Assembly (NCBI GenBank): GCA_043813875.1
Contig: JBDRKP010000006.1
Span: 1 to 18,288, forward strand
DNA length: 18,288 bases
Source: an archaeon
GTDB taxonomy: Archaea; EX4484-52; B79-G9
Direction: 5' to 3'
The notes below the pieces were generated by a model. That model saw nothing but the letters and a program-made list of their open reading frames with translations, ran no database searches and was not told where the DNA came from. Position numbers and translations under genes: made by a program. Shown here one piece after another: positions 1 to 18,288 of the stretch (within the stretch, counting starts at the first letter, position 1; each line of letters begins with the position of its first letter).

Positions 1-12
1 CAAAAACAAACA

Positions 13-20
13 TTTATAAA
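13..20 (+). promoter_or_regulatory. Archaeal TATA box for the 5S rRNA
   Basis: TTTATAAA preceded by an A-rich BRE-like stretch, 22-29 nt upstream of the 5S 5' end. Confidence 0.6.
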
Positions 21-41
21 CTTAATTGTTCAACTTTAAAC

Positions 42-155
42 TCTGGCGGTCATAGCGGAGAGGAAACACCCGATCCCATTCCGAACTCGGAAGTTAAGCT
101 CTCCAGCGATTTGAGTTGTACTGTCTTTCGACGGGAACCTCATGACGCTGCCAGG
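42..155 (+). rRNA. rrf: 5S ribosomal RNA
   Basis: Conserved core CATAGC...ACACCCGATCCCATTCCGAACTCGGAAGTTAAG. Helix I is CTGGCGGT (43-50) paired with GCTGCCAG (147-154). Loop E has GTA/GAA. Confidence 0.96.
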
Positions 156-234
156 CTCTTAATATTTATCCGCAAACGTCCACATATTTCTCTAAACTCT
201 ACTATACCATAAGACTAGGGAAAATCAACAACGC

Positions 235-343
235 GCCCCTGTAGTGTAGCCGGCCTATCATCGAGGACTGTCACTCCTTGGACTCGGGTTCAAAACATGC
301 AACGCACAAAGTTTTGCATCTGAAAATCCCGACGGGGGCGCCA
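235..343 (+). tRNA. tRNA-Asp(GTC) with a 32-nt intron in the T-loop (295-326) and encoded CCA
   Basis: Acceptor stem GCCCCTG/CGGGGGC, discriminator G340, CCA 341-343. Anticodon arm GAGGA-CT-GTC-AC-TCCTT (anticodon 270-272). T stem TCGGG/CCCGA. Removing 295-326 restores the TTCAAAT T-loop. Confidence 0.95.
295..326 (+). other. Archaeal tRNA intron at non-canonical position 59/60
   Basis: Bulge-helix-bulge: central helix TTCA(289-292)/TGAA(321-324), 3-nt bulges AAA(293-295) and AAT(325-327), intron stem ATGCAA/TTGCAT. Confidence 0.88.
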
Positions 344-2884: not shown

Positions 2885-3202
2885 CTACTTCCTCAGCTTG
2901 ACAGCAGTCCCGTACGCTAAAAGCTCTGCAGCCGAAGCCATGATCTGCGACGTCTGGAATCGCACATTGACAACCGCATCAGCGCCAAGCCTCTTCGCAT
3001 CATCAACCATCCTCTTCTCAGCCTCGACTCTTGCCTCAGTCAGCATCTCAGTATACTCCTTAAGCTCGCCGCCGACAATCTGCCGAAGCGCGGCCACAAT
3101 ATCCTTCCCGAACCACTTGGCCCGGATAGTATTCCCCTTGACAAGCCCAAGAGTCTCGACAATCTCATATCCCTGCACAAAATCCGTATTCACAACAATC
3201 AT
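2885..3202 (-). CDS. YbjQ/UPF0145 family protein
   Basis: GLVKGNTIRAKWFGKDI.A.LRQIVGGELKEYT...GADAVVNVRF...AYGTAV. GGTGA precedes the ATG at 3202. Confidence 0.93.
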   Translation of the reverse strand: MIVVNTDFVQGYEIVETLGLVKGNTIRAKWFGKDIVAALRQIVGGELKEYTEMLTEARVEAEKRMVDDAKRLGADAVVNVRFQTSQIMASAAELLAYGTAVKLRK

Positions 3203-3216
3203 CTTCATCACCCGTC

Positions 3217-3447
3217 TCAATTCTTAGATAACAATTTCTCATCCTCAACCGAATCCCTCATCCGCTCACGCACGAGCTGAACAATGATAACCAGAAGCCC
3301 AAAAAAAACAAGACCGACACCGGCCTTGATCACAATTGGCACTTCAGCGCCCATAAACCCGGCAATGAAATTATAGAAAAAATAACCCAAAAGAACAACA
3401 ACCCCGCTGGAAAATATGACAATTCCGGCATTCTTGACCTTATCCAT
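3217..3447 (-). CDS. Small two-TM membrane protein
   Basis: 76 aa with two hydrophobic helices and a charged C-terminal tail, co-oriented directly upstream of the YbjQ gene. Confidence 0.75.
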   Translation of the reverse strand: MDKVKNAGIVIFSSGVVVLLGYFFYNFIAGFMGAEVPIVIKAGVGLVFFGLLVIIVQLVRERMRDSVEDEKLLSKN

Positions 3448-3519: not shown

Positions 3520-4071
3520 ATGTTGATATACTTCGCGACAGGAAACAATAACAAGCTCAAAGAATTCAGGAACGCCCTGGCCCCGTCAGGCATCGAGATA
3601 GAGCACATAGACATAGATTACCCTGAAATAAGATCAGACGACATTGAAGAGATCGCGAAGTCGGGCGCAATCTACGTCTCAAACAAAACCGACAAGCCAG
3701 TCATCGTCGAAGACACAGGCCTTTTCATAGGATCGCTGAACGGCTTTCCAGGCGCATACACAAAATGGGTCCACCAGAAAATAGGCCACGAGGGCTTATT
3801 CCGCCTCCTGGAAGAAAAAGACCGCAGGGCAGAATTCAGGACCTGCATCGCCTTCTCTGAACCCGGCCGCGAACCGGTCACATTCATCGGCATCGCAAAA
3901 GGCACACTCATACTGGAAGAAAGAGGAAAAGAGGGCTGGGGCCACGACCCGATATTCATACCTGAAGGCTACGACAGGACATGGGCACAAGATCCCGAAC
4001 TGAAATCAAGGACATCGCACAGGGCCCGTGCGATAGAGAAATTCAGGGAATGGCTGAAGAAAAAAAGATAA
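3520..4071 (+). CDS. rdgB: RdgB/HAM1 family non-canonical purine NTP (dITP/XTP) pyrophosphatase
   Basis: FATGNNNKLKE, VEDTGL...LNGFPGAYTK, GWGHDPIFIPEG and SHRARA motifs. Confidence 0.95.
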   Translation: MLIYFATGNNNKLKEFRNALAPSGIEIEHIDIDYPEIRSDDIEEIAKSGAIYVSNKTDKPVIVEDTGLFIGSLNGFPGAYTKWVHQKIGHEGLFRLLEEKDRRAEFRTCIAFSEPGREPVTFIGIAKGTLILEERGKEGWGHDPIFIPEGYDRTWAQDPELKSRTSHRARAIEKFREWLKKKR

Positions 4072-4094
4072 AGATAAGACAACAAGGTGATTTC

Positions 4095-5360
4095 ATGACC
4101 GCGACAATAATTATCGGAACGCAATTCGGAGACGAAGGAAAAGGAAAGATAATAGACTACCTCGCAGACGGATCAGACATAATAGCCCGCTTCCAGGGTG
4201 GAAACAACGCAGGCCACACACTTGTGGTAGGCGACGAGACATTCAAGCTGCACCTGATCCCTTCAGGCGTCCTCCATGATGACAAGACAGTTGTGATAGG
4301 CAGCGGCGTAGTCATCGACATCAGGATACTATGCGAAGAGATAGACGAGTTGAAAAAAAGAGGCCACTCAGTAGAAAACCTGAAGATCGCAGGCAACGCC
4401 CATGTGATCATGCCATGGCACAGGGCGCTCGACAATCACGAAGAAAGCAGGCGCAAAAAAAAGATAGGCACGACAGGCCGCGGAATCGGCCCTGCATACA
4501 TGTTCAAGGCAGGCCGCTCAGACGCCATCCGCATATACGACTTCAAAGACGATGACAGGCTCAAAAAAAAGATCAAAGAGATACTCGAAAAAAACAGAGA
4601 CGACTTCATGCGCATCGGATACGGACAGGAAGAAAAAGCCCTCATAAAAGAATATACCGTATACGCAAAAAACATAAGGCACTACATATGCGATGTATCA
4701 GATTACCTCAACAACTCGCTTGACAGCGGCAAAAAAGTGCTCTTCGAAGGCGCACAGGGCACGCTTCTTGACATCGACCACGGCACATTCCCATTCGTCA
4801 CGTCATCAAACACCATCGCAGCCGCAGCCTGCACAGGCTCAGGCATTGGCCCGGGCAGGATAACAGAAATCCTCGGCGTCGTGAAGGCCTACACGACACG
4901 CGTCGGAGAAGGCCCTTTTCCCACCGAACTGGACAACGAAACAGGCGAAAATTTAAGAAAAAACGGGCACGAATTCGGCACGACAACAGGAAGGCCGAGA
5001 AGATGCGGCTGGCTGGATCTCGTCATGCTCAACTACGCAAAAAACCTGAACAGCCTCACAGGCATCATGATCACGAAACTGGACGTCCTGACCGGCCTTG
5101 AAAAAATAAAAGTATGCACAGGATACATGATAGAAAAAAAAGAGACAAGAACATACCCTAAAGACCCGGATGACCTGAAAAAAGCAGAACCCTTATACAA
5201 AGAATTCAACGGCTGGACCGAAGACATAACAGGAATAAAAAACTACAAAGATCTTCCACAAAACGCAAAAATCTACCTGGACTTCATCAAAAAGAATCTT
5301 GCCATCCCGATAAAAATCATATCCGTAGGCCCGAAAAGAGACGAGACAATAGTTGTTTGA
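4095..5360 (+). CDS. purA: Adenylosuccinate synthetase (long, ~421 aa type)
   Basis: QFGDEGKGK, GGNNAGHT, IGTTGRGIGPAY, EGAQG, GTFPFVTSS, EFGTTTGRPRRCGWLD, TKLDVL. AGGTGA SD before ATG 4095. Confidence 0.98.
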   Translation: MTATIIIGTQFGDEGKGKIIDYLADGSDIIARFQGGNNAGHTLVVGDETFKLHLIPSGVLHDDKTVVIGSGVVIDIRILCEEIDELKKRGHSVENLKIAGNAHVIMPWHRALDNHEESRRKKKIGTTGRGIGPAYMFKAGRSDAIRIYDFKDDDRLKKKIKEILEKNRDDFMRIGYGQEEKALIKEYTVYAKNIRHYICDVSDYLNNSLDSGKKVLFEGAQGTLLDIDHGTFPFVTSSNTIAAAACTGSGIGPGRITEILGVVKAYTTRVGEGPFPTELDNETGENLRKNGHEFGTTTGRPRRCGWLDLVMLNYAKNLNSLTGIMITKLDVLTGLEKIKVCTGYMIEKKETRTYPKDPDDLKKAEPLYKEFNGWTEDITGIKNYKDLPQNAKIYLDFIKKNLAIPIKIISVGPKRDETIVV

Positions 5361-5368
5361 GGATAAAA

Positions 5369-5932
5369 ATGAGCCGAGAAGTTAAAGACCGGACAATTCT
5401 CGACAGATTCGCAGAAGACTTTGCCAGAATCATAGAAAAACACACAAAATACATAATAGTCTCCGGATTTGTTGCAATCGCACACGGCAGAAGCAGGGGA
5501 ACCGAAGACATAGACATGATAATAGAACGGATAGAAAAAGAGACATTTATAAAAATTCACACGGATCTAAAAGCAAATAACTTCGAATGTATCCAATCAG
5601 AAGACCCAAACATAATATATGACGACTATCTTAAAGACAACCTCAGCGTGCGGTACATAAGAAAAGGAAGTTTCATACCAGAAATGGAGTTGAAACTTGC
5701 AAAAGATCGCCTTGACAACTACCAGATTGAAACAAGAAAAAAACTACCTCTTACAGGACTTGACCTCTACTTCTCAAGCATCGAGATGAACATCGCATTT
5801 AAAGAAGAACTTCTGAAATCCGAAAAAGACATTGAAGACGCACAACACTTGCGCATTGTGTATGAAGACAATCTCGACGAAAATGAGATCGATAAAATAA
5901 AACAAGAGATAAGGAGAATGTTATTGCCATGA
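5369..5932 (+). CDS. Putative nucleotidyltransferase-fold protein (DUF6036/AbiEii-like)
   Basis: YIIVSGFVAIAHGRSRGTEDIDMII matches G-x-A-x-HG-x-R-x-T-x-D-x-D. C-terminal K...SEKDIEDA. GAGGA SD before ATG 5369. Confidence 0.7.
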   Translation: MSREVKDRTILDRFAEDFARIIEKHTKYIIVSGFVAIAHGRSRGTEDIDMIIERIEKETFIKIHTDLKANNFECIQSEDPNIIYDDYLKDNLSVRYIRKGSFIPEMELKLAKDRLDNYQIETRKKLPLTGLDLYFSSIEMNIAFKEELLKSEKDIEDAQHLRIVYEDNLDENEIDKIKQEIRRMLLP

Positions 5933-6135
5933 GAGACAGAACACACACAGAGCAGGTAAAGAGATGGGCGACATTCGTAAAAAATCACCCGCGTTCAGTT
6001 TGGATAAAAGAAGTAGGTCCGCTAATTGACGGAGAGATAACCTTGGCAAACAATTTTTATGCGCGCCTGGCAAAAACAAAAGGAGGTATGGAAAAAATTA
6101 AAAAACTAAGAGAAATAAGAAAAAGAAAAACCTAA
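5929..6135 (+). CDS. Small basic helical hypothetical protein, partner of the upstream NTase
   Basis: ATGA start/stop overlap with the upstream gene and AGGAG upstream. 68 aa. Confidence 0.7.
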   Translation: MRDRTHTEQVKRWATFVKNHPRSVWIKEVGPLIDGEITLANNFYARLAKTKGGMEKIKKLREIRKRKT

Positions 6136-6157
6136 AAACCAAAAAAAAACACTAATT

Positions 6158-6306
6158 CTATAGTTGCTCGCATAACTATAGTGAAGGCACTAATAAATTG
6201 AGCAGAGTGCCTTCCAATATAGAACAAGGCAAATTGGTTTTTGGCGATGTTTGCTCATTTATTTCATGCCTTGACTATATTTATACAAAAATGCGAGCAA
6301 TCTATA
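6158..6306. repeat. ~150-nt imperfect fold-back (nested inverted repeats) between convergent genes
   Basis: TATAG-TTGCTCGCAT (6159-6173) pairs with ATGCGAGCAA-t-CTATA (6291-6306). TATAGTgAAGGCA (6177-6189) pairs with TGCCTTgACTATA (6267-6279). AATAAAtTGAGCA (6192-6204) pairs with TGCTCATTTATT (6252-6263). CCAAT pairs with ATTGG at the apex. Confidence 0.85.
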
Positions 6307-6354
6307 TGGACAAAGCAGATTAATTGTAAATGCAATTGTGCTTTTTACTATAAA

Positions 6355-7164
6355 TTAGAACCCCTTCCGCTCCAATATAGACTTGACCGACCTGATATCC
6401 GTATAAGGTGGAGCCAGACAGACAACAAAATCATCGTCAAGCTTGCTCAACTCAGAGATATAATCTTCATATGAATCAGCCAAATCATATGCCTTGAAAT
6501 TGCAGACCAGAACCTTCTTTCTGTCACCGCAGACATCTTTCATGGTACATGCAATATCCAGCGCTTTTCCAACAGTATTGCAGGCAGAGCCCAGTATCAG
6601 GCCATCAATATTCCTGTCCCGCAAAACCTGCCTTGTACGCTCAGGCGTTGATCTCCCGCCATAGATGAAATAAGGAGTTGCTCCATCACCATATCTTATT
6701 TTAACAAATAGCCTCATTTTCTGGATACACAAAGATATGAGTTCCGGCTGGGGCGGTGACATATCATCGCGGCCGCTGCCTCTTGACCCCCACTTTGGCT
6801 CATAACCAAGAATCACAGAAGACATGAATTCTCCCGGGACATCCCTGAATATGACACCTAATCTGGACATCATCATTTCAGCTATTCTTTGTGCACTATT
6901 AGTTTCAAATTCATCCCGGCTTTCACCCACTAAAATGACAAATCTAAAAGAAGAGAGATCATAATGGCTTTTTTTAATGACAGATAGCAGTTTCTTGTTA
7001 ATGATTTCCGGTGAATCCCCTGCTTCAGAATGACCTAAAATAACGCCGGATGCACCCGCTTTAAATATCTGGTTCGAACTGATATCACCGGTCCTTGCAA
7101 AAGGATCATATCCATCCCCGTCATATATTTCAAAATTCTGCGCAATCACACCGATATAGGCCAT
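6355..7164 (-). CDS. Triosephosphate isomerase-like protein, circularly permuted (269 aa)
   Basis: Motifs in order: IAQN, ARTGDIS, VILGHSE, LVGES, GYEPKW, IYGG, IDGLILG, then RKKVLVCNFK and VCLAPPY at the C-terminus. ATG 7164 lies 1 nt after the HAD stop, with a GGTGG SD. Confidence 0.88.
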   Translation of the reverse strand: MAYIGVIAQNFEIYDGDGYDPFARTGDISSNQIFKAGASGVILGHSEAGDSPEIINKKLLSVIKKSHYDLSSFRFVILVGESRDEFETNSAQRIAEMMMSRLGVIFRDVPGEFMSSVILGYEPKWGSRGSGRDDMSPPQPELISLCIQKMRLFVKIRYGDGATPYFIYGGRSTPERTRQVLRDRNIDGLILGSACNTVGKALDIACTMKDVCGDRKKVLVCNFKAYDLADSYEDYISELSKLDDDFVVCLAPPYTDIRSVKSILERKGF

Positions 7165-7165
7165 A

Positions 7166-7834
7166 TTATCCACCACAATATAATCTCGATATCGCTTCCT
7201 CAACATCATATATCGACCCGGCACAGGCATCCACACTATCAGTATGCCCCGCTTCCCTGGATACCCACATTGTCCTCATGCCCGCCCTTTTCGCCGGAAC
7301 CATATCCTTGGTGAGGCTATCCCCTACATAGACACATTCATCCGGCTCGAATCCGCACAATTTCATCGCTTTCATGAACGGCTCGATATCTGGCTTGCTA
7401 TGCGTCGTATTATCAACAGAGACAATATGCCTGAAACAGGCCTTATCAACCTGCAAAGCATCAAGAATATCATTCAGCAGCCTCTCACGGATATTAGTGA
7501 TCACACCCAACTCAAATCGATTATGCAACCTATAAAGCATCTGGGCAAGACGCTCATCAGGATTGACATACTGTTTCGGAACTACTGCCGAAAGCGCATC
7601 ATGCAGTTCCATCTTGCTTATACCGAATTCCTTGAGCACTGCCCCTTTCGTAACATGGACCGACTTATCTTTCAGGCGAGCCTTTGTCCTGGCAAACAAG
7701 TCACGAGCTTCATCATAAGAGATGCCCCTACGCTCACCCAGAAGAATTATCGCCTGCCTTGACTGCGCATCCTCAAACTCAGGATTATTATACAATGTAT
7801 CAGACACATCAAAAAATACAGCCTTTACGACCAT
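7166..7834 (-). CDS. HAD-superfamily hydrolase (subfamily IA)
   Basis: Motif I VFFDVSDTL, motif II VITN, motif III KP, motif IV YVGDSLTKD...AKRAGM. The start could be 7834, 7840 or 7855. Confidence 0.9.
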   Translation of the reverse strand: MVVKAVFFDVSDTLYNNPEFEDAQSRQAIILLGERRGISYDEARDLFARTKARLKDKSVHVTKGAVLKEFGISKMELHDALSAVVPKQYVNPDERLAQMLYRLHNRFELGVITNIRERLLNDILDALQVDKACFRHIVSVDNTTHSKPDIEPFMKAMKLCGFEPDECVYVGDSLTKDMVPAKRAGMRTMWVSREAGHTDSVDACAGSIYDVEEAISRLYCGG

Positions 7835-7896
7835 ATTCATAAAAATGCAATCCAAAAGTTATATTTGTTTCGACAGAACCAAAACAAACGACTTTC

Positions 7897-9714
7897 CTAC
7901 TTGACACACTTCTTCGCAAGCTCAATGACCCGCCCGAAATCCTCATCATTCGGCTTGTACTTGGCGAACTTCACAAGATCGCAGAGAGTGAAGCACTCCT
8001 TAAGGTCGACCACATACTTCTCCTCTTCCTTCCCCCGGACATACCTCAAGATTTCGCTGGTAGTAAGCTCCTCTTTGTCCGAAGCTATGACGTACTTAAA
8101 ATACAGGCGTACACCCTGTGAAACCAGTGTATAGGCCTCTTTTTTCTTCCCCGAATCATACATCTTTTGAGCCTTAGTTATCAGCTTCATGGCCTCCTTT
8201 CGCGCATCCAGAGGCTTCACATCAACCAGGGGAACAGCCACACGAGTGACCGCAACATCGCGCTTAAGATACCTCATATAACTATAGACACCGAGCAGCA
8301 CCAAAATCAAAAGAATCGGGATCTTCAACTTATCAAAAAGCGTCCGCCCATCCTCAAGCTCAATATCATCGATTTTGACTTCATCACCATCAAGCTGCAC
8401 GCTCCCCGTGATATTCATCGTCTCATTGCCATTGGAATATGCCAGGGAAAACGAGCTCTCATTCTTCATGAACGGCTTCAGGTCCAGATCCTTCGGCAGA
8501 AACCCCTCTGATCGCAGCTTATCATCAAGTTTCTTGAAGTCTGAACTGTTAGACAAAGCCTCCATAACCTTCTTTTCAAGAGCAGTGGACTTCATACCTA
8601 CTTGAGATACATCACCGCTCTTGATATCGCCGGTTATGTTCGCGCTCTCGCCGTCATCCCTCTTATACTGGTAATTGAACGTAGTCTCATTACGTGGATT
8701 AAGCCCTGAAAACTCTTTCTTGTCAGGCACAAAACCCTCATCCCTGAGCCTATTCTCTTCTTCCTGAAAATCCTTGTTGAGAGAAAGCTTATCATCAAGC
8801 TCACGCTTATCATCATCAGAAAGCTTCTTAATATCCTCGATCTTGCCATCCTTCATCTTGCCGGTGATCTCTCCTTTCTCGCCGGTCGGCTTCTCATACT
8901 CATACTTGAACTCAGTCTCATTATCCCTAAGATCGCTTCGTGACTTCGACTTTTCCTGGTAGCCCTTGCTTTCAAGATCTTTCTTCATGTCCTGGAAATC
9001 CTTATTTTGCGAAAGCGCATCATCCAGCTCCCGGTCAACCTTTTGCTGGGCCTCATCTGCCTCTTTTTGCTGCTGGTTCTTGACGGAACTCATATCATGG
9101 CCCGTCTGCTGCCTTGACTGGGAGATCTTATTCTGTGTCGGATCCTGCTGCTGCTTCATCTCCTCCATCTTCTCCTGGACAGACTTCTGCTCCTCTGTTT
9201 TGGACTCCTGTTTCTGCTCTTCCTCTTGTTGCTGCTGCTGCTCTTGTTGTTGAGGTTGATCATCAAACTGGCACTCGCTCTTGGTCGAAGTGCTAGAAAA
9301 AGCGTAATTCGGATTCCCACCGGTGACAGTCACTACAACTTCATTCTTGCCGGAAACAATCTCCTCTTTGCCGGTCTCTGGATTCGTATACTTGACCTCG
9401 ATTGTACCAAGAGTATAGGTACCCGGATTCTGCACCTGGATAGTCTCATATTCTGAAACACCTATAGCATTCGCAGGTATCCTGCCCTGGATACACTGGG
9501 TATCTAGCGTAGTCCCGCCGATTGAGTTCATATCCCTGATCTTCACAGTAAGTTCCTGTTCAAAAGGATTAGATATGTTCAGGAGTACCCTGACAGTTCC
9601 GCCGCTCTCGACTGACCGGGGATCAGCAATCTTGTCGATCTGCAGTTGCGCTGATGCAAAGGCTGACTGAAAAAGAATCAGAATCACAAAAAAAATAACC
9701 CAATAACGCACCAT
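7897..9714 (-). CDS. BatD-like membrane-anchored protein: signal peptide, Ig-like domain, Q/E-rich linker, three ~76-aa repeats, TM helix, cytoplasmic helical domain
   Basis: Start MVRYWVIFFVILILFQSAFASA with GGTGA SD. PGTYTLGTIEVKY beta-sandwich. TM IPILLILVLLGVYSY. C-terminal ELTTSE...DLVKFAK motif typical of Bat-operon proteins. Confidence 0.75.
   Translation of the reverse strand: MVRYWVIFFVILILFQSAFASAQLQIDKIADPRSVESGGTVRVLLNISNPFEQELTVKIRDMNSIGGTTLDTQCIQGRIPANAIGVSEYETIQVQNPGTYTLGTIEVKYTNPETGKEEIVSGKNEVVVTVTGGNPNYAFSSTSTKSECQFDDQPQQQEQQQQQEEEQKQESKTEEQKSVQEKMEEMKQQQDPTQNKISQSRQQTGHDMSSVKNQQQKEADEAQQKVDRELDDALSQNKDFQDMKKDLESKGYQEKSKSRSDLRDNETEFKYEYEKPTGEKGEITGKMKDGKIEDIKKLSDDDKRELDDKLSLNKDFQEEENRLRDEGFVPDKKEFSGLNPRNETTFNYQYKRDDGESANITGDIKSGDVSQVGMKSTALEKKVMEALSNSSDFKKLDDKLRSEGFLPKDLDLKPFMKNESSFSLAYSNGNETMNITGSVQLDGDEVKIDDIELEDGRTLFDKLKIPILLILVLLGVYSYMRYLKRDVAVTRVAVPLVDVKPLDARKEAMKLITKAQKMYDSGKKKEAYTLVSQGVRLYFKYVIASDKEELTTSEILRYVRGKEEEKYVVDLKECFTLCDLVKFAKYKPNDEDFGRVIELAKKCVK
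8350..9030 (-). repeat. Three tandem 76-77 aa protein repeats within the BatD-like gene
   Basis: Units start at 9030, 8802 and 8571. Consensus LSxNxDF..L.xxG[FY]....NE[TS].F.[YL].Y...GE...ITG. Confidence 0.85.
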
Positions 9715-9725
9715 ATCACCCGGGA

Positions 9726-10673
9726 TCAAGAAAGGATCCTGTATCTCACATACCTTAAATAAAACTCGAGAACAACAAGCATAAAAGCGAGCATGACAAA
9801 CCACACGCGCGTACTGGTCTCCTGGTCCTTGCGCTCGATCTTCTCAGAAAGCGACTTATAGATAGTATCAAGAGTCTTGTCATCTACAGACTTGAAATAC
9901 TCGCCGCCTGTCTCACTGGCGATCATCTGAAGCGTCGCCTCATCAAACTCCGCATAGACCGGCCTGCCGAACCAGTCGACTCCAAGCTGGACATTGCCGT
10001 TTGACCCCATGCCCACAGTATACACCTTGATATCCTGCGCCTTCGCAAACCCGACCGCCTCCTGTGGCGAGACAATACCAGCATTATTCACGCCGTCGGA
10101 CAGAAGAATAACTACCTTCTTCTTAGACTCAACAGAAGTCACCATGTCGATAGCAAGCGCCAGCCCGTCACCGATAGCGGTCCTGCCCTCCTGGACATTT
10201 ATGGAAGCTATATTGGCAAGCGTCCTGTCGCGCGATTTAATCATGAACGACTGCGTCGTAGCGCCCTCGGAAAAAATAACAACACCCGCCCGGTCAGTAG
10301 GCAGAAGGCTCTCGACAAATATCCACGCAGCTCTCTTTGCCGCCTCCATGCGGCTCGGCGTATAATCAGGCGCCTTCATGCTGCCGGACACATCAAGCGC
10401 AAGCACGACATTGACCCCTTCCCCCTTGTGCGGAAGAACAATATAAGGATCAGAAAGAGCGAAAACAACAGAGATGAGAATGAACATGTTCAGGTAAAAA
10501 AGCACCCTGCTCCTGTTCTGGACGCTCTTCCCGTTCATGGCAGTCTTCAGAAACGCGATATTCGAAAACTTGATAGCAGACGCCTTCTTCTTTTGCGCGC
10601 TGAAATGATACAGGTAATAGACCATCGGCACAAGCGCAAAAAGTATCATCCACTGGGGCTGTTCAAAATGCAT
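9726..10673 (-). CDS. batA: BatA-family vWA domain protein
   Basis: N-terminal BatA segment (MHFEQPQWMIL...IKFSN), MIDAS DVSGSM, TAIGDGL, ILLSDGVNNAG, VYTVGMG, TGGEYF, C-terminal TM. Confidence 0.9.
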   Translation of the reverse strand: MHFEQPQWMILFALVPMVYYLYHFSAQKKKASAIKFSNIAFLKTAMNGKSVQNRSRVLFYLNMFILISVVFALSDPYIVLPHKGEGVNVVLALDVSGSMKAPDYTPSRMEAAKRAAWIFVESLLPTDRAGVVIFSEGATTQSFMIKSRDRTLANIASINVQEGRTAIGDGLALAIDMVTSVESKKKVVILLSDGVNNAGIVSPQEAVGFAKAQDIKVYTVGMGSNGNVQLGVDWFGRPVYAEFDEATLQMIASETGGEYFKSVDDKTLDTIYKSLSEKIERKDQETSTRVWFVMLAFMLVVLEFYLRYVRYRILS

Positions 10674-11206
10674 TAGTCGCTCACCATAAACTTCTCTTCA
10701 AACTTCTCATTGAGTTTCAACATCCACGAAAAAACCTTATCAAGTATCCTGATATAATGAAGATGATACAAGACATTAAGCGGCAGTATACCGACGACCA
10801 CCCAATAGAGTTCAAGGCCAGTATCGGCAGCAAGAACATAGATAAAAGCAAGGAAAAACAGAACGACCTGCTTCACTGGATAAGGGATAGATACCCGAAA
10901 AATCCCTTTCCCGTCACTAAGCGAACGCGAGAAGACAACATACCCGAAAACAGCAGCAAAAAAGAGAGTCTCATAAACCCCAAGCTGCATGACATCAATC
11001 TTAAGATAACTCAGGTACTTAAGCACAAGTACACTGCAAAAAGTGACCATTGAAAGCAAGATCGTAAGAATGACACCTTTAAGGAAACGCATCATATCTT
11101 TCTTCTGATTATTGCTCGACAGGGCAATGACACCAAGAAGTATAGCGAAAACTACAGCAATAGACGTTACAGGTATCTGTTCCAGCGCATGAAATATAGA
11201 CGTCAT
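10673..11206 (-). CDS. Hypothetical multi-pass membrane protein (~5 TM)
   Basis: 177 aa with about five hydrophobic segments. Overlaps both neighbouring genes, consistent with translational coupling. Confidence 0.75.
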   Translation of the reverse strand: MTSIFHALEQIPVTSIAVVFAILLGVIALSSNNQKKDMMRFLKGVILTILLSMVTFCSVLVLKYLSYLKIDVMQLGVYETLFFAAVFGYVVFSRSLSDGKGIFRVSIPYPVKQVVLFFLAFIYVLAADTGLELYWVVVGILPLNVLYHLHYIRILDKVFSWMLKLNEKFEEKFMVSD

Positions 11207-12159
11207 ACAAACCCCTGCCTGTTCTTCCTGTCATTCTTCCTGTGTTTCTTCTTATGAAAATATGCGATTATCGGCTTTATCCAGCTGTCCTTTGTATTGA
11301 CTTCCACAAGATCAACCTTATGCTTTCTGAGCATCCGATGAAAATCAGACCGTTGACAAGCGACGAGACGCGAATATTCTTCAAGAAAGGAAGCATCTGT
11401 CGTATCGATCGTCAGCTGCTCGCCAGTCTCCTCATCCTCAAGCTCAATCAGGCCCCCCACATCAGGCATGACAATCTCCCGAAGATCCTCGATGCTCACC
11501 GCAATCACATCATGGCGGCAGGACATCATCTTCAGAGGCACCTCGATCCTTGATATATCATCCATGAAATCCGATATCAGAAATATGATGCTTTTCCTTT
11601 TTAATATTTTCGAAAGATAACCCATAGCAGCACGAAGATCAGTGCCCTTGCCCACCGGCTCGAACGAGGATAACGCATTGATCATCCTCAAGACATGCCT
11701 CTTTCCTTTCTTTGCAGGAAAACACCTCTCGACCCTGTCAGTCGAAAGGACAAGCCCTATGCGATCATTGTTCTTCAGGCACGCAAAAGCGATGCTGGCG
11801 ATAAGCTCGAGCCCGACATCCTTCTTGAATGCGTTCTGCGTCCCGAAATCAAGAGACCCGGAAACATCAAACACAACATAGACACAGAGATCCCGCTCCT
11901 CGATGAACTCCTTCACGAACGGGTGTCCCATCCGCGCAGTCACATTCCAGTCGATAGTCCGCACATCATCACCCACGCGATACTCCCTCACCTCACTGAA
12001 CTCGATTCCCTGCCCCTTGAAGCGCGACTTATAAGCGCCGCATATCAATGAATTTACAAGCGAATTCGTAGCAAGCTCTATTCTTTTCACTTTTTTGATG
12101 ACGTCTTTGGCGCTCCTCTTGGAAGTTGACAGCTTTGTATCTGAATCTGAATTCATCAT
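11203..12159 (-). CDS. DUF58 family protein (MoxR-associated, vWA-like)
   Basis: GAYKSRFKGQGIEFSEVREYRVGDDVRTIDWNVTAR...VKEFIEER, DVSGS, LISDF. Confidence 0.95.
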   Translation of the reverse strand: MMNSDSDTKLSTSKRSAKDVIKKVKRIELATNSLVNSLICGAYKSRFKGQGIEFSEVREYRVGDDVRTIDWNVTARMGHPFVKEFIEERDLCVYVVFDVSGSLDFGTQNAFKKDVGLELIASIAFACLKNNDRIGLVLSTDRVERCFPAKKGKRHVLRMINALSSFEPVGKGTDLRAAMGYLSKILKRKSIIFLISDFMDDISRIEVPLKMMSCRHDVIAVSIEDLREIVMPDVGGLIELEDEETGEQLTIDTTDASFLEEYSRLVACQRSDFHRMLRKHKVDLVEVNTKDSWIKPIIAYFHKKKHRKNDRKNRQGFV

Positions 12160-13489: not shown

Positions 13490-14149
13490 CTTACATGACT
13501 TGAGTATCGCCTATATTCCATTGGTTCGTTCCATTGAGTTGGGTCAATTTTGTTCTGCGCCAAAATGAGTGATATTGGTTGAGCTCTTTTGATGAAGTTG
13601 GATTGTATGTGGGAAGACCGTTGTGGTAGTTGGTGACAGCTATATACGATTGTGGCAGGTTCCATGTGTTTGGAAGGGCGCTTGAGCGCAATCGGTGTCG
13701 GGTGATACCAAATGCGATATATTTCCATAAATTTTTGGTGCTATGCGTGATTTATGATGTCGGATGGATGTAAACCGTCTTGAGTAATATGGACTTTTCC
13801 AAATGGATTTATGTGTGAATTTGGTGTTTTCCATAGATGCAGGTTGAATATTGGATGAATTGGGCACATGAGCGCAAGAGATAAATTCCATCAAATGTTA
13901 GAAAAATGCCTTATGATATCGTTATAAGCGCGTTATATACACGGCATGATAGTGACTCTGATGCGCCCGAAAATTCAAATGGATGAGATGATGGAATCTT
14001 TATATAATTTATAATTCTAATTTTTGATTAGCATTTTGTTAGTTGGTTAATTATTAATATCCGGATAAGATATAGGATAATATTCGCATATACGCCCTGG
14101 AATGGGGTTATCCAGGGGATGTAGTGGGTTAGTGGAGTGGGATCGGGTA

Positions 14150-15166
14150 ATGTCGAAAGTAGTTCATGATGAAAAAGAAACAGCGGGTAAAGAAAGGTCA
14201 TTGGACGGCTACGGCCAGCTGCTGAAAGACATAAAATCCATATTGCAGCAGGGCCTGTCAAAGGCGTATAAAGCTGTTGATAATCTCAAGGTTCAGACCT
14301 ATTGGCAGATTGGCGAGCGGGTTGTAAGGGAAGAATTGAGACATGAAGAAAGGGCAGATTACGGCCAAAAAATTATTGACCATTTGGCAGAAGATCTCCA
14401 GTTGTCGCGTTCAGCGATGTTTTCCATAGTAGCATTTTACAAGACCTATCCGATTGTCCAAACACTGTCTGGACAATTGAGCTGGTCGCATTATCTTGAA
14501 CTTATCACAATTGGGGACAAGGAAAAAAGGATATTTTATGAGTTGCAGATAATTCATAACATGTGGAGTGTGCGTGAGTTAAAAAAACAAATACAAAATA
14601 ACGCCTACGAGCGGGCGAGACGTGCAGGGAAATTAACGATAACGTTACCTGTGCCGCTGAAGCCAACCCTGCCTGAAGACATCTTTAAGGATATATATCA
14701 TTTTGATTTCCTGAAGCTTGATGGCGGATATGCGGAATCCGATCTGGAAGATGGCCTGATTTCGAATATCGAGAAACTGCTTCTTGAATTTGGTTCTGAT
14801 TTCTCGCTTTCCGGCAGGCAGAGAAAAATAATAATCGACGGGCAGGCGCATGCGGTTGACCTTGAGTTCTATCACAGGGGCATTCCCTGCGTTATTCTGG
14901 TTGATCTGAAAATCGGGAATTTCAAAAGCGAATATGTGGGCCAGATGAACAAATACCTTAACTGGTACAGGGAGAACAAAAAGTACGCATGGGAAAAGGA
15001 GCCGGTTGGCCTCATAATCTGCCAGAAGAAAGGCGCTGAAGAAGTCCATTACGCGCTTGGCGGTATAAGCAACCGGATTTTCGTTGCAGAGTACAGGACA
15101 AAGCTTCCGTCCGAGGAAGATATCAAAAAAGCGCTGGTGAAGAAAGCGCCAGAATATGAAAAATGA
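14150..15166 (+). CDS. DUF1016/YhcG family PD-(D/E)XK nuclease
   Basis: YWQIGERV...DYG, LSWSHY, WSVREL, KDIYHFDFL, VDLEFYHR...VDLKIG.F...GQMN.YL. Start at 14150 (14102 also possible). Confidence 0.93.
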   Translation: MSKVVHDEKETAGKERSLDGYGQLLKDIKSILQQGLSKAYKAVDNLKVQTYWQIGERVVREELRHEERADYGQKIIDHLAEDLQLSRSAMFSIVAFYKTYPIVQTLSGQLSWSHYLELITIGDKEKRIFYELQIIHNMWSVRELKKQIQNNAYERARRAGKLTITLPVPLKPTLPEDIFKDIYHFDFLKLDGGYAESDLEDGLISNIEKLLLEFGSDFSLSGRQRKIIIDGQAHAVDLEFYHRGIPCVILVDLKIGNFKSEYVGQMNKYLNWYRENKKYAWEKEPVGLIICQKKGAEEVHYALGGISNRIFVAEYRTKLPSEEDIKKALVKKAPEYEK

Positions 15167-15237
15167 CAAAAGAAAATGATGAAATGGAAATCAAAATAGA
15201 GAAATCATTATATACACGAAGAGTCCAAGGTAATGTG

Positions 15238-18200
15238 ATGAGGAAAGGTAAAGTAAAAAAGTCAACATCAAACGCGCGATTGCCGGCAATTGCATTTTCA
15301 GCAGTTGCAGTGCTCGCGCTGTTTGCGATTTTGTCTTTTGCGTTGCCGCAGGTGACTTACGTTTCGCCAACTCTTTCCGACAACGCGACAACCGGCGCAA
15401 ACTGGGTTTTTGTGAACCTGACTTCTTCGGAGAATTTGAACCAGTCGCTTCTGGAGTGGGGCAATACAAGCGGGTTTACGAATGTTTCGATGTCGAATGT
15501 CTCAGCCTCGATAACAAACTGGTATGTGAATATGACCAGCTTGACGGACGGAAGATATAACTATACGGTTTGGGCAGAGAATACGACGGGAGGGTGGAAT
15601 CGGACGGCGAGGAGGTTTGTGGTGGTACAACAAGGTCCTTCCGGCTGCTCTGCAATTGGGGCAGCGACGTATAATGCCGGAACAAACACAATCTCGTTGT
15701 ATAACCAGACAAGCACTTTGTGTACCCTCTATTATGATGTAAACAACGAAAGTGCATTATCATATATCACTTCAACAAATACTTATGACCTAAAAGCGAA
15801 CATAACTTTAGGTAACAACGCAACATTCATAATAAATGACACTACATTAATACTCAATACAACAAATTCAATAAGAGTTATTGATGCCCCCAGTGATACT
15901 GTTTGTAATAGAACGCTTAAAATTAAAAATGCTGAGATTTACGCATTAGATTATAATAAAAGTGAATTTACGGACATATGCGGCATAGTAGAAATTGAGA
16001 ACGCCACTATCCATAAAATTGGCATAGACAAGCCAACTATTTCGGGGTGGGGGGCATTTTATCTTAGGTCCTCCGATGTGAATAATAATCTCCCATATTT
16101 TTCTATAAAAAACAGTACTGTCTATGATGTCCCTAAGTTTTTTGGAGGCTACTATCTGGAAACGGCTATTTTTGAGAATAACAACTTTTCAAACATAACT
16201 CGTTCAACAATCGACTTGTACAATCAAATTAACAGTTCAGTAATTAGAAATAATTTGTTTAATAACGTATTACGTGCAAATGCCCTTTGCAGCAATGGGG
16301 ATGCGGTTATTTGCGGAAGTGATAATTCGATAATTGAAAACAATACGATTTCATATTACGGATATGCTGGTGGATCATCAACACTAGCAATCTGTATTAA
16401 AGAGAAAGTTAATATATCTCTTGATAATAATCGCGTCACTAACCCCTATGGCAGTGATGTTCGTGGTCTTGCAAATTCAATGACATTTGCTGTACAGGCA
16501 TCCATAAACCTATTCAGAAACAATTTTGTAAACGCTACGGGAGGTATGAACGCATTTTCAACCAGTGGCGCCGGAGTGTTTGCTTACAATTATTATCACC
16601 TGATAAATAATACATTTATTGGCGGGCTAGTCGAATCGTTTCAAGGACATGACCTACTTATACGCGATAATAATATTAGGGATTGCGGGTTGTGGACATC
16701 AGGGATACTTATCTCGCCGAGTGGTGGCGGGCATTCGAATGTTACTCTGTGGAATAACACAATCTCAAATTGTGCAACTGGCGGAGGCCAAATTGCAATA
16801 AACATCCAGGATGCCAATGTTACTGTAATAGATTTTGATTACGATGGAAAATCGACCTATTCCATAAGCGTAGAAAACACCAAAATAGTTAATGCGAATT
16901 ATACAAATCAACTTTATATCGGTTCTGGAAAAGTAGCATATGTATATTATTATTCAGATGTCAATCTCACGGATTTTGGGGGTAATAGCCTTTCTGGCAT
17001 GGAAGTCCGAGTAACTAATGATGTTAATTCGTCACATCCTTCAAAAAACCTATTACTTCCTCTTCAAGACAACGCCGTAGCTTATACAGAGTCTAATGGA
17101 CATACCTCAAAGCCTTCTGAAAATGCAAGCAATACAATTGTACTCATGGATTACTGGAAGACATCATCAACTCAGCAAAATATGACCTACACCATCACCG
17201 CCTACGACCCCAACAACATCTGGACCAACGTAACGCACACGATATATCCAAACGGAACGATACAGCAATTGCAGCCATTGGCTAATGTTTCGGGCGTTAA
17301 TCCAGACGCCTCGTGGTACAGAAGCAATCCGAACACTTATCAGAACACAACAACTCTGCAAATCAATTACACTAAAACCAATATCACAATCGCAGTCACA
17401 AATACTACAAATATTACAGTCTCCGAATATTCGCAAGCAAAGATAAACTTCACTGCAACCAACACAACAGCAAGCCAGAAGATGAACATCACAATCTCAA
17501 ACAGCACATTCCCTGTGGTGAATGGTTGGCAATATCACATTAAGAAAGACGGAGTTATACAGTCAACTCAAGCGGCGTCATCTAATCAGGTCATATTCAC
17601 TAACATCAGCATTGGAAGCGAATACATAATTGAATCATTCAATAACCTGACAGTTACTCTCAATACTCCGCAAAACAATAATGTTACAAATAACGCCTCA
17701 GTTACATTCAACTGTTCTGCTTCAACATCTAACAATCTGACAAACATCACTCTCTACACCAACCAGTCCTCTTGGTCCGCAAAGAACTCGACCAACATAA
17801 CCGGCACTACAAACTCCTCGCAATGGGTTAACACTCTCGCAGACGGCACCTACATCTGGAACTGCCGGGCATATGACGACACAGGCAACTCGTCGTTCGC
17901 AATAAGCAACTATACGCTGACAATAGACACGATCGCACCGTTTGTGCAGATAATCCTACCCGCAAACACGACATATAACTCAGCTACGCGGACGCTGAAT
18001 TACACAGCAACCGATCTGAACCTGAATGCGGCGTGGTACGGCTACAACGGGACTAATACTACTTTAAGCGGGAATGCGACATTCACTGCTTTGGCGAATC
18101 AACAGTCCACTCTTGTGTTGTACGCCAACGATTCCGCAGGAAACGTCAATTCGACTTCGGTAACGTTCACTGTAGATACATCTGCTCCTGTCGTTTCTCT

Positions 18201-18288
18201 CGCGAGCCCCGCAAACGCATACAACACATCAACCGCATCCATTAACTTTACCTTCAACGTGACGGATAATATCAACGCATCAATGGCA
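15238..18288 (+). CDS. Large secreted surface (glyco)protein, partial: signal peptide, Ig-like domain, right-handed beta-helix, further Ig-like repeats
   Basis: Translated by hand: the frame is open from ATG 15163/15238 to the window end (1017 codons from 15238). MRKGKVKK...hydrophobic signal. LTDGRYNYTVWAEN Ig domain. IRNNLF/IENNTI/LDNNRV/FRNNFV/LWNNTI beta-helix coils. DGTYIWNCRAYD...IDTIAP and YANDSAGN...VDTSAP Ig repeats. Many NxS/T sequons. Absent from the ORF track because it has no stop in the window. Confidence 0.92.
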   Translation, partial: MRKGKVKKSTSNARLPAIAFSAVAVLALFAILSFALPQVTYVSPTLSDNATTGANWVFVNLTSSENLNQSLLEWGNTSGFTNVSMSNVSASITNWYVNMTSLTDGRYNYTVWAENTTGGWNRTARRFVVVQQGPSGCSAIGAATYNAGTNTISLYNQTSTLCTLYYDVNNESALSYITSTNTYDLKANITLGNNATFIINDTTLILNTTNSIRVIDAPSDTVCNRTLKIKNAEIYALDYNKSEFTDICGIVEIENATIHKIGIDKPTISGWGAFYLRSSDVNNNLPYFSIKNSTVYDVPKFFGGYYLETAIFENNNFSNITRSTIDLYNQINSSVIRNNLFNNVLRANALCSNGDAVICGSDNSIIENNTISYYGYAGGSSTLAICIKEKVNISLDNNRVTNPYGSDVRGLANSMTFAVQASINLFRNNFVNATGGMNAFSTSGAGVFAYNYYHLINNTFIGGLVESFQGHDLLIRDNNIRDCGLWTSGILISPSGGGHSNVTLWNNTISNCATGGGQIAINIQDANVTVIDFDYDGKSTYSISVENTKIVNANYTNQLYIGSGKVAYVYYYSDVNLTDFGGNSLSGMEVRVTNDVNSSHPSKNLLLPLQDNAVAYTESNGHTSKPSENASNTIVLMDYWKTSSTQQNMTYTITAYDPNNIWTNVTHTIYPNGTIQQLQPLANVSGVNPDASWYRSNPNTYQNTTTLQINYTKTNITIAVTNTTNITVSEYSQAKINFTATNTTASQKMNITISNSTFPVVNGWQYHIKKDGVIQSTQAASSNQVIFTNISIGSEYIIESFNNLTVTLNTPQNNNVTNNASVTFNCSASTSNNLTNITLYTNQSSWSAKNSTNITGTTNSSQWVNTLADGTYIWNCRAYDDTGNSSFAISNYTLTIDTIAPFVQIILPANTTYNSATRTLNYTATDLNLNAAWYGYNGTNTTLSGNATFTALANQQSTLVLYANDSAGNVNSTSVTFTVDTSAPVVSLASPANAYNTSTASINFTFNVTDNINASMA

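Follow-up and report, generated by a model that had tools for sequence, protein, structure and literature searches.

Can the chain of a triosephosphate isomerase (TIM) be reopened at a new point in nature, with its old ends joined, and still give a cell a working enzyme? The question is raised by an open reading frame (ORF) of 269 codons in an archaeal stretch of 18,288 nt, contig JBDRKP010000006.1 of assembly GCA_043813875.1 (1.64 Mb in 90 contigs, 91.5% complete). We call the whole stretch the window, and all positions refer to it. The ORF lies on the reverse strand, runs from 7164 to 6358 and ends with a TAA stop at 6355-6357; its translation contains no internal stop. A first-pass annotation had read it as a TIM in which each of the eight beta-alpha units of the barrel occurs once, in the order 3-8 and then 1-2. 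Profile comparisons and a predicted structure make it almost certain that the ORF encodes a complete, circularly permuted barrel of the TIM family. We also consider it likely that the protein is an active, specialised paralogue and not the housekeeping TIM of its host.

Two profile matches in swapped order

Against Pfam PF00121 the protein scores 69.2 bits (cut-off 20.1, E 5.2e-19), with residues 5-205 placed on profile positions 56-242 of 245. A canonical-TIM hidden Markov model (HMM) that we built from 33 Patescibacteria TIMs matches every one of 45 aligned members of the ORF's family, with HMM positions ~57-252 on residues ~2-213. In 26 of the 45 it also finds a weak second domain of -3 to +6 bits, in which HMM positions 2-61 fall on residues 209-269. 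Profile-profile comparison with hhalign places the first 207 columns of the family on canonical positions 58-249 (E 3e-28, probability 99.8%) and the last 62 on canonical positions 3-57 (P 1.8e-4, probability 48%). Together the two parts tile canonical TIM exactly, the C-terminal part falling on the positions that the N-terminal part leaves free. Comparison of the family profile with PDB chains likewise gave two pieces: profile 20-196 on TIM 89-256 at 73.6 bits, and profile 221-266 on TIM 28-75 at 5 bits, the second with NFK over NWK and sPp over APP. The units thus run from beta3 to beta8 and then through beta1 and beta2, not in the canonical linear order from beta1 to beta8.

The first-pass annotation had argued from short motifs, all of which are present: AQN, ARTGDIS, GHSE, VGES, YEPKW, YGG, IDGLILG, RKKVLVCNFK and CLAPPY. 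The codons that it named are correctly placed for His45 (7030-7032), Glu122 (6799-6801), Lys224 (6493-6495) and Arg215, where RKKVLVCNFK begins (from 6522), and the single intact frame translates as it said. The swapped order that it expected appears in all four comparisons, with PF00121 aligned from position 56 onward, and the C-terminal ~55 residues do align to TIM beta1-alpha2. It had further predicted that a structural model would give a complete barrel, that homologues would share the breakpoint and that reads would cross the junction; the results described in the next two sections agree on each point.

A predicted barrel closed by the C-terminal segment

AlphaFold2, run with the 45-row family alignment, predicts a closed eight-stranded barrel with high confidence (predicted local distance difference test (pLDDT) 94.3, predicted template modelling score (pTM) 0.92). 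The strands are residues 3-6, 40-43, 74-79, 117-121, 165-169, 188-191, 217-222 and 246-251, each followed by helices, so that the (beta/alpha)8 barrel is complete as a prediction. The linker columns, which are poorly conserved in the alignment, lie between the helix at 198-212 and the strand at 217-222.

All of the PDB matches listed by Foldseek are TIMs, aligned over only ~191-224 columns with TM-scores of ~0.55-0.62. When we compared the model with 48,161 representative chains using VIA-align, TIM-family chains were at the top, and they covered residues 1..213 of the model only, against 57..254 of the chain; 11ef_A had Z 17.8 (rmsd 2.3, 186 residues aligned) and 6bve_B had Z 17.3 (rmsd 2.4, 182 aligned). 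Unrelated barrels in many cases span the whole model, for example 7uek_A (4..269) and 4rc1_A (1..269). Because the TIM chains stop at 213 and the unrelated barrels reach 269, residues 217-269 appear to contribute the two strand-helix units by which the barrel is closed.

The protein is also predicted to form a homodimer, with an ipSAE score of 0.81 compared with 0.00 for the best of three controls. In the calibration of this tool the mark was reached by 20 of 30 same-chain-pair structures and by 1 of 23 single-chain structures. Three runs agree in at least 91% of contacts, and the partner pLDDT is at least 91. In canonical TIM dimers, loop 3 interdigitates into the active site of the partner. 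The inter-chain contacts of lowest error in our model are those of Thr25 with His45, Lys224, Asn222 and Glu47 of the partner chain, and the C-terminal residues Asn222 and Lys224 lie beside the N-terminal residues His45 and Glu47; in the model, therefore, the active site is built from both ends of the chain. The predicted TIM-like geometry resembles solved TIM dimers, and its good score may come from the model's memory of them. In the ESM Atlas only TIM-named clusters were found, which gave no further information on function.

A small family with a shared breakpoint

In a word-index search we found 173 homologues at E<=1e-3, of which the 120 that were listed have 171-450 residues, mostly 255-275, and are all labelled as TIM or hypothetical. 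The 45 aligned homologues are alike in their start, the position of the linker, the C-terminal NFK...(S/A)P segment and the breakpoint. The ORF matches the family profile over positions 1-266 at 417.9 bits and is 44-63% identical to the other 44 aligned members. Family loci numbered 19 in a scan of genomes and 27 in a scan of metagenomes. Going by record titles, the bacterial genome loci include seven from Saccharibacteria, others from Peregrinibacteria, Peribacteria, Kerfeldbacteria, Roizmanbacteria and Beckwithbacteria, and two labelled 'Patescibacteria group'; the Beckwithbacteria copy lies in a complete chromosome from the candidate phyla radiation (CPR) (L017, CP011210.1). Archaeal genome loci come from Woesearchaeota, Aenigmatarchaeota, a metagenome-assembled genome (MAG) labelled Methanosarcinales and an 'uncultured archaeon', and further loci from a short contig binned as Gammaproteobacteria and from one 'uncultured bacterium'. 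An exhaustive profile search of 1.84 billion representatives gave 21 representatives at E<=1e-30. Taken together, these searches indicate a family that is small but real, spread over CPR/Patescibacteria, DPANN and a few other archaea.

The junction between alpha8, the linker and beta1 is bridged at 6484-6691 by a 208-nt contig from public run X3 that is 100% identical to the window. We give this contig little weight because the run may be the source sample. No contig among four runs spans the whole gene; only short contigs match, and large parts of the gene are without cover. Word shares of the best-matching runs are small (0.06-0.18), and as the source sample may be among them, these runs do not constitute independent support. 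No RNA runs with the gene sequence were listed.

Fused forms were sought in a word-index search for proteins of 472-2000 aa with P0001; none was found at E<=1e-3, which by the tool's own account is weak evidence. Among the listed homologues, P0119, P0096 and P0050 have an unusual layout. In P0119 (382 aa) a PF02578 (Cu-oxidase_4/YfiH-like) domain is joined to the last two-thirds of a permuted TIM, the N-terminus of P0096 (450 aa) is extended by 183 residues that match nothing in Pfam, and the C-terminus of P0050 (351 aa) is different beyond residue ~220. Such forms may be genuine fusions or artefacts of gene calling on short contigs. The copy in the 'uncultured archaeon' MAG (L005:412-1221, forward strand), 64% identical to the ORF, has one in-frame TAA at the position aligned to Glu141 and is otherwise intact; it may be a pseudogene or contain a low-coverage sequencing error.

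A maintained active site with rebuilt loops

We give canonical residue numbers as in chicken/yeast TIM. Asn222, Phe223, Lys224, His45, Glu47, Arg24, Thr25 and Gly26 are invariant in all 45 sequences, for which the mean column identity is 49%. Glu47 is the equivalent of Glu97. At position 122, that of the catalytic base, 38 members have Glu, as does this ORF, and seven have Asp. The invariance of the Asn, Lys, His and Glu97 equivalents, together with a base that is only ever Glu or Asp, is the signature of an active site that has been maintained. We therefore think it likely, judging from the conserved residues and the model, that the protein is a catalytically active aldose-ketose isomerase of the enediol type acting on a small phosphorylated sugar.

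The loops around this site are another matter. In loop 6, EPKWGSRGSGRDD(M)PPP replaces EPVWAIGTGK, so that the gripper part reads GSRGSG(R)DD where canonical TIM has AIGTG. YGGRSTPER replaces YGGS in loop 7, with the Arg in 40/45 members, and LGSAC replaces GGAS in loop 8, with the Ser in 44/45. After GHSE the permuted family has VGDSPE where canonical TIM has RR, and loop 3 is ~5 residues longer than in canonical TIM. The canonical gripper motifs AIGTG, YGGS and GGAS are thus missing, although backbone contacts could still exist. The rebuilt loops 3, 6, 7 and 8 are specific to the family and are themselves conserved, which suggests selection for something different.

A second TIM in the host and probable lateral acquisition

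The host genome has another TIM gene. Contig 53 carries a full-length PF00121 match (131.9 bits, profile 1-240) in an intact 247-aa archaeal-type TIM, which scores 283 bits against NF003302 (cut-off 132) and adjoins an MCM gene, which marks the host as an archaeon. Since the catalytic residues of the permuted protein are kept and a normal TIM is present in the same genome, the permuted gene probably specifies a second, specialised isomerase rather than being a broken copy. The same pairing is found elsewhere: a full-length PF00121 match in canonical order is present in 14 of 16 genomes with the permuted gene, this genome included. The exceptions are G041, with a partial match only (profile 1-119), and G042, with none. 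At four loci outside the 16 genomes (L012, L019, L076 and L078), a canonical TIM lies directly beside the permuted gene. The identity given by the first-pass annotation, triosephosphate isomerase, therefore holds as far as a permuted isomerase of the TIM family is concerned, and its implied role as the TIM of the cell has to be qualified in view of the second, intact TIM and the rebuilt phosphate loops.

The permuted protein is closer to bacterial-type TIM (52.9 bits against PRK00042) than to the archaeal model (21.1 bits). We found the gene in none of 40 relatives of the host, which include seven genomes of the same genus and eight more of the same family and have completeness of 57-96%. With this bacterial likeness and this absence from relatives, lateral acquisition is the simplest reading, and the gene probably reached this archaeon by lateral transfer.

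A search of 201 evenly sampled Patescibacteria genomes showed no carrier besides the seed G041, with 23 weaker matches not all inspected. Five Patescibacteria genomes with only weak PF00121 matches (E 1e-16 to 1e-23) were considered as possible cases of a permuted TIM without a canonical one; none has the family, the best score being 18 bits.

Glycolytic neighbours in some lineages

We scanned the neighbours of 33 related loci, 17 from genomes and 16 from metagenomes, with Pfam. Left out were genome loci that were too short (L015, L016) or are canonical TIMs (L022, L023), metagenome loci that were short or cut (L065, L067, L072, L087, L088, L090, L091), and repeats of the layout or contig of L007, L013 or L017 (L068, L069, L079, L083). 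Glycolytic genes are the only neighbours that recur strongly. The gene order is tpiA, permuted TIM, pgk in L011, L012 and L019 and tpiA, pgk, permuted TIM in L076 and L078; all five of these loci are from CPR bacteria. Because they put the permuted gene in a tpiA-pgk cluster, a triose phosphate or a close analogue is suggested as the substrate.

A hydrolase of the haloacid dehalogenase (HAD) subfamily IA adjoins the permuted gene both here and in Saccharibacteria locus L014. The two HAD proteins share 36% identity over 212 residues, and for both the best NCBIfam model is TIGR02253, with scores below its cut-off. Other neighbours include HIT and NUDIX proteins, proteins of the metallo-beta-lactamase fold, uracil-DNA glycosylase, IMP dehydrogenase and orotidine monophosphate decarboxylase, among others. 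On one Saccharibacteria contig, a heliorhodopsin gene (PF18761, 299 bits; L020:5018-5881, forward strand) lies immediately upstream of the permuted TIM.

Other permuted TIMs and the origin of the permutation

The exhaustive search brought up long proteins (640-4398 aa) as well, along with a few proteins of ~270-310 aa, to all of which the family profile aligns across the junction, over positions ~18-266. Their TIM part matches the Pfam profile over ~41-244 at 187-215 bits. The permuted modules and standalone proteins P0134, P0137-P0141, P0161 and P0177 have the same breakpoint as this ORF, the same start at beta3 and the same kind of end, NWK...AP. They differ from it in having near-canonical loops, in scoring 187-267 bits on PF00121 where this ORF scores 69, and in that many are fused to phosphoglycerate kinase (PGK), enolase or phosphoglucomutase domains. 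PGK is joined to TIM in P0139 and TIM to enolase in P0141. In P0134 a canonical-order match at 102-361 overlaps a permuted-order match at 176-419, and phosphoglucomutase domains follow. An alignment shows the near-canonical loops in the short proteins P0137, P0161 and P0177, with AYEPrWAIgtG, YGGS, VGGAS and GNWK.

To place these forms we used an unrooted maximum-likelihood tree of 107 rows and 193 shared columns (quick search, with support from the Shimodaira-Hasegawa-like approximate likelihood ratio test (SH-aLRT) only; the low-coverage row P0128 was dropped). The family of this ORF is a clade with support 99*, and the ORF lies inside it. The 60 canonical rows form one clade (SH-aLRT 82), all 47 permuted rows are on the other side of that branch, and the near-canonical permuted forms fall between this family and the canonical clade. 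With a single separating branch, one change of state suffices for all 47 permuted rows. The tree and the shared breakpoint suggest that a single permutation in a bacterial-type TIM is probably common to this family and to the TIM modules of the giant proteins.

A history that would connect these observations starts with one permutation, arising by duplication and fusion of a bacterial-type tpiA. The permuted gene would then have spread laterally through CPR bacteria, DPANN and other archaea, and would have been taken into giant multi-enzyme proteins. On the branch of this ORF the phosphate-gripper loops would have been rebuilt, giving a new sugar-phosphate isomerisation next to ordinary TIM. 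We put forward the joint scenario, of an active natural permutant with this origin, this spread, this entry into giant proteins and this new reaction, only tentatively; as a whole it is conceivable but falls somewhat short of probable.

Weighing the explanations

Several of our results count against parts of this interpretation. The match of the C-terminal 55 residues is weak for single sequences (-3 to +6 bits, in 26/45, with an hhalign probability of 48%), and the case for a permutation therefore also leans on the predicted structure. The equivalent of Glu165 is Asp in 7/45 family members, and in canonical TIM the change of Glu165 to Asp is strongly deleterious. Arg stands in place of Ser211 in 40/45 members and Ser in place of Gly233 in 44/45, so that phosphate binding may be altered or lost. 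Scores against the NCBIfam TIM equivalog models are far below their cut-offs (58.1 vs 883, 52.9 vs 293 and 40.9 vs 130.6). The co-occurrence counts rest on MAGs of unknown completeness. Gene context is variable in 28 of the 33 loci, and the link to tpiA and pgk is therefore limited to some CPR lineages. The branch uniting the permuted forms is not strongly supported (82, unrooted), and the canonical rows of the tree are the best hits to the family profile and not a balanced sample; a single origin is thus compatible with the tree but not proven by it.

These points have to be set beside what other explanations would predict. The ORF might encode a plain working TIM that interconverts dihydroxyacetone phosphate and glyceraldehyde 3-phosphate, a redundant or condition-specific isozyme for which the permutation is functionally neutral. 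In its favour, all catalytic residues are kept and a TIM-like dimer is predicted; the permuted gene lies between or beside tpiA and pgk in five CPR loci; apart from the permuted gene, PF00121 is matched nowhere in G042 and just in part in G041; and databases label family members 'triose-phosphate isomerase'. An isozyme fits less well with a canonical TIM in 14/16 genomes, directly adjacent in five loci, with loops 3, 6, 7 and 8 rebuilt into new versions that are conserved, or with a patchy spread (0/40 relatives, and no carrier shown besides seed G041 among 201 Patescibacteria). We judge it unlikely, though well worth keeping in mind. That the protein is inactive or regulatory, perhaps as a partner that binds canonical TIM or PGK, or as a sensor of a metabolite, is very improbable: a paralogue beside an intact TIM, with altered gripper loops and Asp for Glu165 in 7/45, might suggest it, but the Asn, Lys, His and Glu97 positions are invariant and the base is only Glu or Asp across 45 sequences at ~50% mean identity. 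Least credible is an artefact, either a mis-assembly of two TIM fragments or a C-terminus that mimics beta1-alpha2 by chance. The weak single-sequence match of the C-terminus and the lack of any contig over the whole gene speak for such an error. The same architecture is nevertheless found in 45/45 aligned homologues, with 173 homologues found, and in many independent assemblies, including the complete chromosome CP011210.1; the profile-profile match covers just the segment that was missing; the barrel is closed in the model and predicted with confidence; and an identical contig covers 6484-6691. We regard an artefact as extremely improbable.

We therefore prefer a specialised paralogue to a housekeeping TIM, because a canonical TIM nearly always co-occurs with the permuted gene and because loops 3, 6, 7 and 8 have been rebuilt. 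We lean, with less assurance, towards a physiological substrate that differs from that of the housekeeping TIM or is used differently. The substrate is probably triose phosphate under different constraints, or a close analogue of it.

Comparison with known barrels

Canonical TpiA (EC 5.3.1.1, PF00121) is homologous to the permuted protein over the whole barrel, has the same Asn, Lys, His and Glu set with the Glu97 and Thr75 equivalents, and has the dimer geometry that is predicted for the permuted protein. It differs in its unit order, 1-8 as against 3-8 then 1-2, and the permuted protein coexists with it. The best VIA-align match of the model, PDB 11ef, is by its entry title an L-erythrulose-1-phosphate isomerase from Brucella, and its chain is in canonical order. 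By analogy, it shows that the same catalytic machinery can serve a paralogue in the TIM family for another sugar phosphate. An ordinary TIM (6bve_B, Z 17.3) ties with it in score, and a shared substrate finds no support in sequence or gene context.

Natural permutations of TIM barrels occur elsewhere, in transaldolase compared with the class I aldolases and in GH70 glucansucrases compared with GH13. These cases and the designed barrel sTIM11 demonstrate that the (beta/alpha)8 fold tolerates moved termini; they belong to other families or to designs, and not to TIM itself. To our knowledge, natural permutants come only from barrel families other than TIM. In the full-text literature that we searched, from which subscription journals are largely absent, we found no description of a natural circular permutant of TIM, in agreement with what the first-pass annotation had stated, and the circular permutants of the fold that are described there are designed proteins. 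Two TIM-barrel reviews describe sTIM11 as a circularly permuted design, and their passages on permutation treat it only as a general evolutionary mechanism or in connection with designed barrels (PMC8250049, PMC13105402). The passages on the enzyme in two papers on CPR bacteria refer to ordinary tpiA or TIM only (PMC12815258, PMC8406219).

TIM serves in textbooks as the model of enzyme catalysis and loop dynamics and of how barrels fold and are designed. A natural permutant of it would be a natural experiment on how chain connectivity bears on folding, dimerisation and the function of the lid loop, and the series from canonical TIM through the canonical-like permuted forms to this derived family offers material on how permutations arise. 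The family also suggests that the metabolism of CPR and DPANN probably includes an activity not yet annotated. As its genes carry simply the label 'triose-phosphate isomerase', Pfam-based TIM counts in metabolic reconstructions may be wrong. If the joint scenario set out above is true, the enzyme after which the TIM barrel is named occurs naturally as an active circular permutant, and ultra-small microbes would have an undescribed enzyme of central carbon or nucleotide-salvage metabolism.

Setting of the gene in the window

The positions of the permuted gene, its parts and its upstream neighbour are collected in Table 1.

Table 1. Features of the permuted TIM gene and the adjoining gene, in window coordinates
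Feature	Position	Strand	Basis
CDS, circularly permuted TIM-family protein, 269 aa	6358..7164	(-)	Pfam; 45-row alignment; AlphaFold2 pLDDT 94.3, pTM 0.92
Residues 1-207, barrel units beta3-alpha8, equivalent to canonical TIM ~58-249	6544..7164	(-)	hhalign E 3e-28; VIA-align; Foldseek
Residues 208-216 (MKDVCGDRK), linker from alpha8 (old C-terminus) to beta1 (old N-terminus)	6517..6543	(-)	Alignment; AlphaFold2
Residues 217-269, beta1-alpha1-beta2-alpha2, equivalent to canonical TIM ~3-57, with NFK and APP	6358..6516	(-)	hhalign; PDB profile; AlphaFold2
His45 codon in GHSE, equivalent to catalytic His95	7030..7032	(-)	Invariant in 45/45; aligned to canonical GHSE
Glu122 codon in YEPKW, equivalent to catalytic base Glu165	6799..6801	(-)	Glu in 38/45, Asp in 7/45; aligned to YEPVW
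Asn222-Phe223-Lys224 codons, equivalent to Asn11 and Lys13 (canonical NWK)	6493..6501	(-)	Invariant in 45/45
Arg24-Thr25-Gly26 codons, tip of loop 3, with the equivalent of Thr75 in AFTGE; interdigitating dimer loop	7087..7095	(-)	Invariant in 45/45; dimer model
HAD-IA phosphatase-like gene, upstream of the permuted TIM	7166..7855	(-)	Pfam HAD_2/Hydrolase

The ATG at 7164 is the start codon, matching the MAxI position where every one of the 45 aligned homologues starts. A longer version starting with GTG at 7236 was rejected, since it overlaps the 3' end of the HAD gene and the homologues start at ATG 7164. The sequence GGTGGA precedes the ATG, and the TAA of the HAD gene (7166-7168) ends one base before it. 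Because this gap is a single base, the two genes look translationally coupled, and from their arrangement they are probably co-transcribed. A role in phosphoglycolate metabolism by way of the HAD neighbour was set aside as speculation, the HAD protein being far below every phosphoglycolate-phosphatase cut-off. A promoter and terminator scan of 6100-8100 gave results near shuffle expectation. There was no clear signal of a GC island in the window: the 1-kb bin holding most of the gene is at 0.39, within a range of 0.38-0.50.

A type III RuBisCO large subunit is encoded at 1516-2811 on the reverse strand (TIGR03326, 553 bits; cut-off 497), 3.5 kb from the permuted TIM. Between the two are a YbjQ-family gene (2885-3220), a Ham1/ITPase gene (3520-4071) and purA (3981-5360). 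The last two overlap by ~90 nt in the ORF list, and Ham1 NTPase, purA and RuBisCO all lie within 5 kb. A functional link of the permuted TIM to the RuBisCO was rejected as speculation, since RuBisCO adjoins the permuted gene in none of the 33 related loci scanned.

Directly 3' of the stop of the permuted TIM, at 6200-6356, are two units of ~75-80 nt of a dispersed short repeat. A further 20 partial copies, at 78-98% identity, are found on 17 other contigs of the genome, and many contigs from the four metagenome runs begin or break off here with loose ends. The window yielded no tRNA and 5900-6500 no Rfam match, and the predicted fold of 6200-6360 is ordinary (z -1.66). The repeat looks like an intergenic element of the miniature inverted-repeat transposable element (MITE) or repetitive extragenic palindromic (REP) kind.

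Farther upstream, at 9726-12159 on the reverse strand, is a cluster of a BatA/VWA gene, a gene for an unknown protein of 177 aa and a DUF58/VWA gene. Gln/Glu/Lys repeats abound in the 635-aa ORF adjoining this cluster (7897-9804), which lacks a Pfam match. Toward one end of the contig, 515-1501 holds a Pol-beta-type nucleotidyltransferase and a 'phage metallopeptidase' (PF18894). The other end (14102-18288) holds a YhcG/DUF1016 nuclease of the PDDEXK type and an ORF without a Pfam match that is longer than 1042 aa and is cut off by the contig end. Both flanks may be mobile or related to defence.

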